This document shows, piece by piece, positions 18,015 to 40,928 of a stretch of 64,000 bases of DNA (position 1 is the first letter of the stretch; each line of letters starts with the position of its first letter). A program made the translations under genes and the position numbers. Under the pieces are notes generated by a model that was not told the DNA's origin, did not search any database, and saw only the letters and a program-made list of their open reading frames with translations. This DNA comes from an uncultured Bacteroidota bacterium (GTDB lineage Bacteria > Bacteroidota > Bacteroidia > Bacteroidales > GCA-2748055). The DNA lies in assembly GCA_963783435.1 (NCBI GenBank), contig CAWANQ010000004.1:948428-1012427 (forward strand). Direction: 5' to 3'.

Positions 18015-18043
18015 ATCAGCCGAGGTAGCGGATTACTCGACTG
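18015..18043. repeat. Relic copy C of tRNA-3'-end-like motif
   Basis: The sequence is atcagccgaGGTAGCGGATTAcTCGACTG. It matches copy A in 19 of 22 positions (18019-18040). It shares ATCAGC..GGATTA..TCGACTG with copy D. Confidence 0.5.
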
Positions 18044-18069
18044 CAAGATGTCTCTCGCCAAGCTTCTCC

Positions 18070-19149
18070 TTATAAAGGTTTAAGGTCCGCTTCTTCAAAT
18101 TCCTTTACCAATGATTCCATTGTTTCTTTAACAGAAACTATTTTTGTGGCTCTGTATGCATTCGATCCGGCAAAAGCATAGCCATTAAAAAAATTGCCCT
18201 TCCTTCCATTTACCAGGGCAGCAACAATGCAATACGGTGTGGATTTGATATCGCAGGTGCTCAAGCAATGATAAGGACATTTTATGGGGCGCTTCTCCCC
18301 CCTTCTTATTTTTTCGATAAAATCATTTCTGATAGCGCGTCCTGGCATTCCAACCGGACTGTTAATGATTTCCATATCTTCCTCCGTGGAATCAATATAG
18401 GTCTGCTTGAATTTCAATGAAGCATCGCACTCTTCTGTGGTAACAAAACGCGTTCCCATCTGAACACCTGACGCACCCAAATCCATAATCTTCTTAATGT
18501 CTTCTCCTGTATATATCCCGCCTGCAGCAATTACCGGGATTTTGGTCTGGTAGGTCTCTTCAAAATATCTTACCTGCTCCAATACTTCAGGCAATAGTTT
18601 TTCCAGGGCAAAATCGGGGTCATCCAGTTGCTTTCTTTTAAACCCCAGATGTCCTCCGGCCTTTGGCCCTTCAACAATAATTGCATCAGGGAGATAATCA
18701 TATTGATCTTTCCACTTAGAGCATAATATTTTTGCCGCCCTTCCAGACGAAACTATCGGTACAAGCTTTGTTTTCGATCCTTTGCTCAGGTGTTGAGGCA
18801 AGCTTAAAGGAAGCCCGGCACCCGCAATAATAATATCAATACCGGCTGAAATAGAAGCTTTTACCAGATCTTCAAAATTTGTAAGTGCAACCATAATGTT
18901 TACACCAAGTACACCCTTGGTCAATGCTCTTGCCTTTTGTACCTGGCTCTTTAATGCCCTTATGTTTGCTTCCTTAAAATTTTTCGCATAATCTGGCTCA
19001 AACATCCCAAGTCCTGCCAGGGCGATAACTCCAACTCCACCTGCGTTGGCAACTGCTGCTGCCAATCCCGACATCGAAACCCCAATGCCCATTCCTCCCT
19101 GTATGATTGGTAATTCAACTGTCAGATCCCCTATGTGTAATCCCTTCAT
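18070..19149 (-). CDS. Nitronate monooxygenase / FabK-like FMN-dependent oxidoreductase
   Basis: 359 aa. N-terminal PIIQGGMGIGVS..LAAAVANAGGVGVIA and later GAGLP, AAGGIYTGEDI, GASGVQMGTRF are typical of the NMO/2-nitropropane dioxygenase fold. Confidence 0.75.
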   Translation of the reverse strand: MKGLHIGDLTVELPIIQGGMGIGVSMSGLAAAVANAGGVGVIALAGLGMFEPDYAKNFKEANIRALKSQVQKARALTKGVLGVNIMVALTNFEDLVKASISAGIDIIIAGAGLPLSLPQHLSKGSKTKLVPIVSSGRAAKILCSKWKDQYDYLPDAIIVEGPKAGGHLGFKRKQLDDPDFALEKLLPEVLEQVRYFEETYQTKIPVIAAGGIYTGEDIKKIMDLGASGVQMGTRFVTTEECDASLKFKQTYIDSTEEDMEIINSPVGMPGRAIRNDFIEKIRRGEKRPIKCPYHCLSTCDIKSTPYCIVAALVNGRKGNFFNGYAFAGSNAYRATKIVSVKETMESLVKEFEEADLKPL

Positions 19150-19312
19150 CTCAAAACATTCTTAAAATAGACGGTAATATTGCTCAAATATCTGAATTTT
19201 CATATTTACATCTAGTTTTTAGCATTTCGTTAATAAATTCCGGACTGACTATAGGGGGCTATTGTCGGATAATTATCATTTCCAAAAATAGTGCGGCAGA
19301 ATAGAAAAGAGG

Positions 19313-40295: not shown

Positions 40296-40430
40296 ATGGT
40301 TAAACTACCTGGGAACTTCGATTTTGAAGAAGTGGAAACGGGCAAAAAACCCGGACCCAGGGTTAAATTTTTGAAACCGGAAGGTATTCCGATCAAGCAT
40401 CATTATTCGCATGCATCGTGCTTTAAATAG
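40296..40430 (+). pseudogene. 44-codon ORF, possible degenerate HicA-like toxin remnant
   Basis: MVKLPGNFDFEEVETGKKPGPRVKFLKPEGIPIKHHYSHASCFK, ending 37 nt upstream of hicB. It only loosely resembles the HicA core and lacks the C-terminal part. Confidence 0.25.
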
Positions 40431-40467
40431 CACTATCAACAGAAACAAATTTGTAAATATTGGGCTT

Positions 40468-40863
40468 ATGAAAAACTTGGAATATAAGGGTTATACAGGG
40501 ACCATTGAGTACAGCAAAGAAGATGGATTGCTCTTCGGTAAGGTCCTGGGAATAAAGGCACTGATCTCTTACGAAGGATCCACAGGAAAAAAGTTGGAAG
40601 CTGATTTTACAGGTGCTATTGATACCTATCTAGCAGATTGCAAACAGGATCGTGTTGTGCCGGAGAAACCTTTTAAAGGAAGCTTTAACGTGCGCATATC
40701 CCCCAAGCTTCACAGGCAGGCAGCCTTGCTGGCCATGGAGGAAAATACATCCCTGAATAGTTTTGTTGCAGAAGCTATCCGCGAACGGATCAGTAAGGAA
40801 GGTGTTTATCAAAAAAGAAGAACGCCCATCTCGAAAGAAGAGAGTTCCGTTATGTCGGGGTAG
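40468..40863 (+). CDS. hicB: HicB-family antitoxin (RHH C-terminal domain)
   Basis: Starts MKNLEYKGYTGTIEYSKEDGLLFGKVLGI.., followed by FKGSFNVRISPKLHRQAALLAMEENTSLNSFVAEAIRERI. The last 9 nt including the stop codon overlap the tRNA-Pro 3' end. Confidence 0.75.
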   Translation: MKNLEYKGYTGTIEYSKEDGLLFGKVLGIKALISYEGSTGKKLEADFTGAIDTYLADCKQDRVVPEKPFKGSFNVRISPKLHRQAALLAMEENTSLNSFVAEAIRERISKEGVYQKRRTPISKEESSVMSG

Positions 40864-40928
40864 CGGGATTTGAACCCACGACCTCGTCGTCCCGAACGAC
40901 GCGCGCTACCGGGCTGCGCCATACCCCG
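40855..40928 (-). tRNA. tRNA-Pro (anticodon CGG)
   Basis: Hand-folded 74-nt cloverleaf. Acceptor CGGGGTA/TACCCCG, D stem GCGC/GCGC, anticodon stem CGTCG/CGACG with loop TTCGGGA, T arm GTGGG-TTCAAAT-CCCGC, discriminator A. CCA is not encoded. Confidence 0.95.

Follow-up and report, generated by a model that had tools for sequence, protein, structure and literature searches.

Insertion into the tails of tRNA genes is a well-known route of gene gain in bacterial genomes, and its general mechanism is textbook. For streptococcal elements a three-step route has been described, in which an element integrates, decays to a cis-mobilisable element (CIME) and is then joined by the accretion of a further element (PMC5704250). 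The Bacteroidota elements NBU1, NBU2 and Tn6031 integrate in the 3' ends of tRNA-Leu, tRNA-Ser and tRNA-Pro genes (PMC5704250). In Dehalococcoides, the ssrA gene carries tandem islands whose boundaries are 20-bp repeats of the 3' end of ssrA; next to every repeat is a conserved motif that does not come from ssrA (PMC3146451). Here, we consider a stretch of DNA of 64,000 nucleotides (hereafter called the window) from an uncultured Bacteroidota bacterium, in which an intact tRNA-Pro(CGG) gene is accompanied by repeated copies of its last 13-17 nt, called the core in the following. We consider the tRNA-Pro(CGG) gene to be an integration hotspot, with the DNA between about 22 kb (possibly 18 kb) and the tRNA (40.85 kb) made up of the remnants of genomic islands that stand there as a decayed tandem array, and we give this reading a probability of roughly 60%. 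The left limit of the array could be either of two core copies, A and C, described below.

This reading is supported because the gene order of the right flank is conserved in related genomes while the DNA 3' of tRNA-Pro differs from lineage to lineage, because the sequence of copies A and B is the distal junction of a small insertion present at tRNA-Pro in at least five related genomes, and because at a marine locus (L042/L043) core copies separate unrelated modules, with an integrase of the family found in the window about 170 nt from one of them. It is further supported because the composition is atypical over 23-41 kb, because at a further related locus a complete copy of the small insertion adjoins genes that are 85% identical in nucleotides to window positions 28420-30061, and because both the anchor and the repeats are genuine and not due to chance, with a relatives-based profile matching one strand and 22-41 kb only. 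The first-pass annotation of this DNA had already proposed serial integration and decay at one tRNA attachment (att) site; the proposal stands for about 22-41 kb, but not for 18-22 kb, for one of the copies then listed (D) or for the motif taken as a decayed T-arm.

The tRNA-Pro(CGG) gene and the copies of its 3' end

The features on which the argument is built are as follows (L numbers denote loci of relatives).

40854-40928, minus strand: tRNA-Pro(CGG), the anchor (ARAGORN; Rfam RF00005 at 40855-40928, 63.2 bits)
40808-40853, plus strand: H1-type hairpin and linker, directly at the tRNA 3' end (nhmmer profile from relatives; side-by-side sequences)
40469-40863, plus strand: hicB antitoxin gene (Pfam HicB, E=8e-19)
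40197-40451, plus strand: hicA toxin pseudogene (tblastn, 61% identity to L036 hicA)
33288-33382, plus strand: relic E, H1-type hairpin, linker and first 5 nt of the core (GTCGG) (nhmmer at 33288-33351, E=1.4e-5; blastn to L013)
28316-28645, plus strand: int', what is left of a tyrosine integrase of the Bacteroidota type, in two fragments, internally deleted and lacking the N-terminus (tblastn, 84-89% to L041 integrase pieces)
28060-28112, plus strand: relic B, core 11/13 and hairpin H2, about 200 nt left of int' (nhmmer, E=7.5e-5)
22254-22337, plus strand: relic A, more complete than any other copy, with core 13/13, then hairpin H2 and the GGGGTG..AAAATAGAAAA stretch that is conserved in the small insertion (nhmmer, E=1.8e-17)
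18019-18040, plus strand: relic C, core 11/13 and first 9 nt of the H2 arm (pattern search; alignment against shuffles)

The 13-nt core comprises the discriminator with the base that comes after it, the 3' strand of the acceptor stem (7 nt) and a 4-nt part of the T-stem. NBU1 and NBU2 share 13-14 bp with the tRNA end, which is similar to the core of 13-17 nt here. The minus-strand position of the tRNA, called at first from the letters alone, is borne out by both ARAGORN and Rfam, and a near-identical tRNA adjoins PfkB in relatives. Relic A (22257-22306) starts with GTCGGGGTAGCGG, which in plus-strand reading is the tRNA's final 13 nt; an exact search of the window for this 13-mer gives two places only, relic A and the tRNA, against an estimated 0.002 or so chance occurrences in 128 kb, so that the identity reported in the first-pass annotation is confirmed. 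The same holds for the relation of A to B (28061-28110), which form a 50-nt direct repeat of 92% identity, the second-longest direct repeat in the window. Relic C, too short for the nhmmer profile, carries GGTAGCGGATTACTCGA and equals the L014 copy at 20 of 22 nt. It has the 17-mer GGTAGCGGATTAYTCGA in common with A, the pattern of which, with up to three mismatches allowed, matches only C, A and B in the window (0.14 matches expected), and its local alignment to A scores 30, above all 30 shuffles of block-shuffled windows (maximum 27).

Independent of these comparisons within the window is an nhmmer profile that was built from the relatives' units only, with the window sequences left out. It matches four places in the window, namely A, the tRNA junction, E and B, all on the plus strand and all in 22-41 kb, with nothing else at E<1. 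At the tRNA junction, positions 40808-40870 fit the order H1, linker and core (E=3.6e-10). Relic E, absent from the first-pass annotation, was found by this profile; it runs into a junction to ...TGAACGAAGTTCGAACC..., and the same junction is present in L013 beside a large serine recombinase, the blastn match to L013 13255-13332 (79%, E=1.5e-9) reaching position 33382. Two types of junction are therefore present: A, B and C are distal junctions, made of core and element arm H2, while E and the sequence abutting the tRNA are of the other type, made of the terminator hairpin H1, linker and core. In A, B and C there is more than a tRNA tail: each joins a tRNA 3' core to the conserved hairpin H2, a putative element-derived arm. 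Moreover, A and B have the same H2 variant, which suggests a common origin within the lineage of the window.

Other interpretations of these short sequences were tried and rejected. Four related sequences in the same orientation had been listed earlier, and three of them (A, B and C, all on the plus strand) are non-random as described; the fourth, D (34101-34124), is a chance resemblance, since it resembles C, A, B and the tRNA no more than shuffled sequences do and is unmatched by the relatives-only profile, and the motif thought to be common to C and D fails likewise, the alignment of D to C being no better than shuffles. The TTCGAA in A, once described as T-loop-like, belongs to the stem of hairpin H2, and no T-stem pairing is possible that would make A a degenerate tRNA or T-arm. 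Coding by A and B was also set aside: short open reading frames (ORFs) are present in both frames, with every difference between the two copies non-synonymous.

At the tRNA itself, the window is joined straight to H1, as in L013 and without the small insertion, pieces of which sit 12.7 and 18.5 kb away from the tRNA. The frame of hicB crosses H1 and ends with TAG at 40861-40863, within the last 10 nt of the tRNA, which is where the first-pass annotation had put its stop codon. The hicB gene is intact and its product is 78% identical in amino acids to that of L036, where hicB stands just past H1, whereas translation of hicA meets a stop in frame at codon 30 and another, premature one close to the 3' end.

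The tRNA-Pro locus and the small insertion in relatives

The relatives were found through the flanking proteins (PfkB homologues of 72-84% identity), and the comparison thus covers the right flank. There the order ClpP, ClpX, EamA, glycosyltransferase, cmk, ispH, pfkA, priA, PfkB and tRNA-Pro is kept. By contrast, the content 3' of tRNA-Pro is unlike in every lineage examined:

L013: 511-aa large serine recombinase, with its frame running into the tRNA
L014: FIST and sensor-kinase genes
L015-L019: CoiA and three tandem tyrosine recombinases, then Tex
L033: HEPN/MNT
L036, L034: hicAB
L037: AAA ATPase

Comparison of these sequences indicates that, at the level of related lineages, the tRNA-Pro locus is an integration hotspot. 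It is noted that in L013 an inverted repeat of about 118 nt (11095-11230 and 13200-13332), which takes in the tRNA's final 5 nt, the linker, H1 and a further 80 nt or so, surrounds the serine recombinase. This segment looks like an invertible one or one integrated by the serine recombinase, and relic E of the window has the same outer junction.

In at least five related genomes, a non-coding insertion of about 190 nt (the mini-insertion) lies between tRNA-Pro and H1, flanked by 17-nt direct repeats AATCCCGCTACCCCGAC of the tRNA end. In L014, L032, L033, L036 and L037 its core and H2 are located 136-174 nt 3' of tRNA-Pro(CGG), oriented relative to it as they are in the window; L014 has GTCGGGGTAGCGGATTACTCGA... 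about 170 nt 3' of its tRNA-Pro, and L031 has two copies. The unit is absent from the tRNA junction of the window, of L013 and of L015-L019. In a metagenome scan for core and hairpin, six loci were found, four of them with tRNA-Pro(CGG) 136-171 nt away and two on contigs that stop before any tRNA is visible. The coordinates of the units are as follows.

L014: 11090-11342
L031: 3491-3738
L032: 2371-2614
L033: 1700-1954
L036: 4795-5042
L037: 8857-9139

Read in the direction of the tRNA, the unit starts with the tRNA ending in ...AATCCCGCTACCCCGAC, followed by AAAAGAGAAAAA, a terminator hairpin and a hairpin with a conserved palindrome; its middle is composed of TTTTTCTCTTTT, AGG.CACCCCCTC.CC and hairpin H2 (GGATCA-N-GA-(variable stem)-GA-N'-TAATCC); and its end is the second AATCC(C)GCTACCCCGAC, then a short linker, hairpin H1 and a T-run. 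Within this unit, A corresponds to the distal 84 nt, B to the distal 50 nt and C to the distal 22 nt.

The array reading treats A, B and C as scars of attachment. The unit is also strongly structured, and it could be either debris or a functional structured element. A long-range stem of 12-14 bp between AAAAGAGAAAAA and TTTTTCTCTTTT closes it, with one compensatory change from G-C to C-G in L033. Over the unit of about 190-250 nt in six genomes, 93.4% of cells are paired versus 80.1% in shuffles (none of 500 shuffles reaches 93.4%), 26 pairs are altered on both sides versus 12.6 expected, and the pairing falls to 43-61% once the partners are slid by 1-3 columns. Among 11 copies of H2 (the window and eight loci), the outer stem is kept in all 11, as is a seventh pair that covaries (T-A, C-G or G-C), five different perfect inner stems are present, and three copies have none. 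In L037, around 9000-9090, H2 is tandemly duplicated within one unit, with two different inner sequences.

It is conceivable, though unlikely, that the unit of about 190 nt is a conserved functional module of an uncultured clade of marine or sediment Bacteroidota and not debris, either as a small structured RNA or as a "landing pad", a decoy attachment site that would catch islands while sparing the tRNA gene. A related reading, which we regard as improbable, is that the unit of core and H2 arose from the tRNA-Pro tail and is functional itself, either as a small RNA that codes for no protein or as a DNA structure to which protein binds, that it is kept by selection, and that A, B and C are paralogues arisen by segmental duplication or rearrangement and no attachment scars. 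The structure and covariation just described speak for this, as do the place beside tRNA-Pro kept in at least five genomes and the common H2 variant of A and B, which duplication within one genome predicts. However, two of the helices are ordinary terminators, which would covary anyway, palindromic protein-binding sites likewise give apparent covariation, and the inner stem of H2 is missing from the three copies mentioned. Moreover, the exact 17-nt flanking repeats and the absence of the unit from the tRNA junctions listed above are the behaviour of an insertion. In Rfam 15, only tRNAs reach the gathering score in the window, L014 and L031, and nothing is found at E<=10 around A.

The link of the core to an integrase comes from the window, L031 and L042-L044 only. 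In L031, a complete mini-insertion with both cores adjoins an ATPase gene, int', carbonic anhydrase and SulP, with no tRNA within 15 kb. Positions 28420-30061 of the window are 85% identical in nucleotides to L031 1-1669 (blastn), and the stretch from B through int' and carbonic anhydrase to SulP looks like the same old module as in L031 after deletions, as judged from this alignment. In the marine loci L042 and L043, three core copies lie between modules of resistance-nodulation-division (RND) efflux, HigB and ATPase genes, one copy having H1 and 26 nt of the tRNA, and a decayed integrase of the int' family is about 170 nt right of a core copy (GTCGGGGTAGCGGGATTT), which is the same layout as B followed by int'. 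On this layout, L042 and L043 appear to be a second, independent array of the kind proposed here.

As to int' itself, the homologue in L041 has the domains Arm-DNA-bind_5 and Phage_int_SAM_5 and, in its C-terminal piece, a weak match to Phage_integrase, which assigns the integrase debris already noticed right of B to the tyrosine-integrase family. An N-terminal domain of the Arm-DNA-binding type is typical of integrases of the phylum Bacteroidota. We also observe that the C-terminal 75-90 aa or so of the integrase is kept as a short ORF in the window (28418-28645), L031 and L038-L044, at 71-88% identity and in eight protein clusters; this ORF stands in several gene contexts, often without an intact N-terminal part, and is unusually well kept for a stump. 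Some of the integrase splits may be sequencing errors. To the right of B, positions 28104-28142 match the AAA-ATPase gene of L037 over 39 nt (90%), while tblastn gave no confirmation of an ATPase stump there.

Gene modules, composition and the proposed course of events

Between the core copies and the tRNA lie the following genes and repeats (T9SS denotes the type IX secretion system).

18070-22068, minus strand: NMO (18070-19149), TonB-dependent receptor (19313-21724) and small dihaem cytochrome-like protein (21787-22068), between C and A (Pfam)
22483-27934, plus strand: large T9SS-tailed surface protein gene, ORFs 22483-26325 and 26285-27934, flanked by A and B (Pfam Por_Secre_tail, fn3, Cadherin, CarboxypepD_reg)
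27937-28023, plus strand: ORF6N-domain fragment of 28 codons followed by a hairpin, a mobile-element-type stump (Pfam ORF6N, E=6e-7)
28648-31154, minus strand: beta carbonic anhydrase (28648-29241) and SulP transporter (29301-31154), GC 0.51-0.54 (Pfam)
31372-31839, minus strand: nnr' (YjeF_N), a 468-nt housekeeping-gene fragment cut at both ends (Pfam YjeF_N; protein alignment)
31759-32988, minus strand: C10 cysteine protease gene (Pfam Peptidase_C10, Inhibitor_I69)
33352-40853, unstranded: tentative island unit 1, 7.5 kb, GC 0.33-0.42 (Pfam, composition, boundary repeats)
33691-33791, unstranded: repeat of about 100 nt resembling a miniature inverted-repeat transposable element (MITE), with internal inverted arms at 33720-33775 (blastn, 82-86% to L031, L033 and L034)

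The gene content given by the first-pass annotation is largely recovered: NMO, receptor, cytochrome, T9SS, carbonic anhydrase and SulP, the YjeF_N stump, C10, M43, Peptidase_S74 and the ParE, helix-turn-helix (HTH) and HicB proteins are supported by Pfam or, for the cytochrome-like protein of 93 aa, by two CxxCH motifs. The exception is the "S8" protease, which has no Pfam match even at E<=1 and matches PDB subtilisins at E of 0.13-0.3 only. A 125-aa ORF at 22318-22695 on the minus strand looks spurious, being basic and of low complexity and overlapping the signal-peptide region of the large T9SS-tailed gene. That gene is itself split into two ORFs of 1280 and 549 aa that overlap by 41 nt at 26285-26325; either it is a frameshift pseudogene or the split is a sequencing error.

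Unit 1 contains hicAB, a 64-aa ORF, an HTH protein, a 97-aa ORF, ParE, the weak subtilisin-like fragment, a Peptidase_S74 protein, a T9SS-tailed protein and M43. Both of its ends are GTTATGTCGG with H1-type hairpins, and no recombinase gene is left in it. The 1.2-kb non-coding gap between C10 and M43 has GC-rich hairpins at 33514-33650, with 25-nt arms at 33514-33566, 10-nt arms at 33588-33609 and a third hairpin seen by eye near 33625-33650; this series is what had been called a hairpin array. The MITE-like repeat is found in L031, L033 and L034 always in contexts linked to tRNA-Pro or to islands. Left of the region, a 300-nt direct repeat of 90% identity is present at 8888-9187 and 9590-9889 (spacing 702 nt), with two shorter repeats in the same register, perhaps an internal duplication or domain repeat of a gene.

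For the composition, the rest of the window was taken as reference (tetranucleotide correlation 0.84 +/- 0.04), with the line drawn at the mean minus 2 standard deviations. The correlation is 0.65-0.74 at 23-28 kb (GC 0.49-0.51), 0.56 at 29-31 kb (GC 0.52) and 0.61-0.76 at 31-41 kb (GC 0.34-0.41), while at 18-22 kb it is mostly 0.80-0.86, with one 2-kb window (19001-21000) of 0.75 under the line. Thus, of the region that had been proposed for a composition check, 23-41 kb is atypical and falls into three mutually different compositional classes, but 18-22 kb is largely native. A and B fall on compositional boundaries, and the tRNA 3' end is where the atypical DNA begins. The sharp GC shift near 31.2-31.4 kb falls on a breakpoint of nnr', where there is no core relic.

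The fragment nnr' is 86-90% identical (blastn) to the intact nnr of L030 and L031, with sharp ends on both sides. In relatives the intact gene adjoins YggS, ParA-like and MBL-fold genes, with no tRNA beside it. The last 26 or so codons of C10 are read from nnr', and therefore the original 3' end of C10 is lost. Cut at both ends and running into the C10 frame, nnr' marks two rearrangement breakpoints and shows that illegitimate rearrangement took place in addition to site-specific integration. In L031, SulP and carbonic anhydrase (1-1404) lie about 9 kb upstream of the intact nnr (10001-11517) on the same strand, whereas in the window the nnr piece is directly beside the start of SulP; such a join would be as expected from circularisation or tandem duplication of the segment from SulP and carbonic anhydrase to nnr.

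It can be asked, then, whether the whole segment is a hypervariable one, shaped mainly by illegitimate recombination, deletion and local duplication, with the tRNA-tail copies as by-products of these and not of integrase action. A core-gene fragment lacking both ends and lodged between SulP and C10, as nnr' is, is what this would produce. Moreover, the 9-kb distance between SulP with carbonic anhydrase and nnr on one L031 contig means that this material may be local and not imported, the identity of SulP and carbonic anhydrase to L031 (85%), no higher than that of nnr (90%), fits vertical descent, and hicAB beside H1 is common to L036 and L034. However, four observations are left unexplained by it: a repeat that starts exactly at the tRNA 3' end, the same 17-nt repeat on both sides of the insertion that five genomes have at the tRNA, the nearness of core copies to integrase genes of a single family in two unrelated contexts, and three distinct compositional classes. 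We consider it improbable as the main cause. It is very improbable, finally, that the motif of core and H2 is a generic dispersed repeat of the genome, of the repetitive extragenic palindrome (REP) or MITE kind, with a coincidental clustering near the tRNA in the 64-kb window, since, although the repeat at 33691-33791 does recur at several loci of relatives and the complete unit of L031 is away from any tRNA, within the window all copies lie in 18-41 kb on one strand, the metagenome loci have tRNA-Pro close by wherever the contig reaches far enough (four of six), and the 19-mer of the A/B hairpin has, in 185,579 species-representative genomes, 12 matches in unrelated phyla and none in Bacteroidota, about the number due to chance. 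Two DNA-motif scans and one scan with the integrase-remnant alignment gave no match in viral contigs.

Based on the array reading, the course of events may be described as follows, from the anatomy of the locus and the known behaviour of tyrosine integrases. An element whose attachment site (attP) carries 13-17 nt identical to the tRNA 3' end would recombine with the tRNA gene. The recombination would restore the tRNA and leave a second core at the distal junction, joined to the element arm, with each insertion supplying a terminator, either H1 or that of the mini-insertion itself. Newcomers at the same site would displace the older units outward, giving accretion, and loss of the integrase and transfer genes would leave CIME-type remnants that are flanked or marked by att. 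The array would then have been scrambled and inactivated (int', the ORF6N stump, the hicA pseudogene) by deletions and by two or more illegitimate joins (nnr'). The decay signs and REARRANGEMENT in the window are nnr', the C10 frame ending in nnr', the hicA pseudogene and the 28-codon ORF6N stump. Tentatively, the map leftward from the tRNA would be unit 1 at 33.35-40.85 kb, with toxin-antitoxin and T9SS/protease cargo; E; C10 and nnr'; SulP, carbonic anhydrase and int'; B; the ORF6N stump and the large T9SS gene; A; possibly the cytochrome, receptor and NMO; and C.

Several points weigh against the array. No intact recombinase, excisionase, relaxase or transfer gene is present in the region, so no unit is demonstrably once mobile; among the ORFs scanned in 18-41 kb no relaxase-type domain was found, and the integrase remnant is the only trace of such genes. 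The homologues of int' in L038-L041 have neither a core copy nor tRNA-Pro within 10 kb. Plain serial integration of unrelated elements would not give three copies of one arm, H2, for which repeated insertions of mini-elements or segmental duplication are needed. The joins of nnr' are made without an att relic. The NMO, receptor and cytochrome module, which is possibly accessory at most, is native in composition and without comparative support. The tRNA followed by H1 and hicAB resembles the second core in L036, and since hicAB and H1 are common to L036 and L034 at 75-77% nucleotide identity, at least the tRNA-side end may be old and vertically inherited, with no recent insertion. Note also that the closest relatives (PfkB of 95-98%) are represented by contigs of 1-3 kb, all ending within the tRNA or shortly before it, and no empty or differently filled site was available from a close relative; the contig ends were set aside as a sign of variation, an assembly-graph effect of the conserved tRNA being most likely.

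With these points weighed, the locus is an ordinary but well-marked example of an integration hotspot at tRNA-Pro(CGG), from a lineage of uncultured Bacteroidota that has been little studied. It shows secreted proteases, T9SS cargo, a bicarbonate/sulfate transporter with carbonic anhydrase, and toxin-antitoxin genes gathering at one place and then becoming fixed. The tRNA core with H2 provides a concrete marker with which such islands can be delimited in related metagenome-assembled genomes, and the small covarying unit beside tRNA-Pro in relatives is the only part that is perhaps worth further work.

Comparison with known systems

The closest described systems are arrays that combine integrative and conjugative elements (ICEs) or integrative and mobilisable elements (IMEs) with CIMEs, such as ICESt1 and its CIME in Streptococcus thermophilus (PMC5704250). 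The locus is like them in that integration is at the tRNA 3' end with the att core duplicated distally, in that decayed elements keep att without integrase or transfer genes, in that arrivals at the same site give arrays, and in that toxin-antitoxin cargo is typical. It is unlike them in that the window has no unit with two intact att sites and a working integrase, and cis-mobilisation is not demonstrable. Moreover, the best-preserved att-flanked unit, the one of about 190 nt in relatives, has both 17-nt cores and no genes and is far smaller than the described CIMEs, while the units of the window are bounded by degenerate cores (11/13 for B and C, 5 nt for E).

The elements NBU1, NBU2 and Tn6031 are alike by description, with tyrosine integrases that insert in tRNA 3' ends (Leu and Ser, and Pro for Tn6031). 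Unlike for NBU-type elements, no mobilisation gene or origin of transfer (oriT) was found in the region of the window.

The ssrA islands of Dehalococcoides (PMC3146451) differ in their target, which is the tmRNA gene, in their serine recombinase and in the intact integration modules of many of the islands, where the window has tRNA-Pro(CGG) and a remnant of a tyrosine integrase. They are alike in having several tandem islands downstream of one small-RNA gene, marked by a short repeat of its 3' end and a conserved foreign motif, and in a junction frame that runs into the RNA gene (dsiB there, hicB in the window, the serine recombinase in L013). Finally, both have low-GC cargo and both are suggested to be fixed relics.

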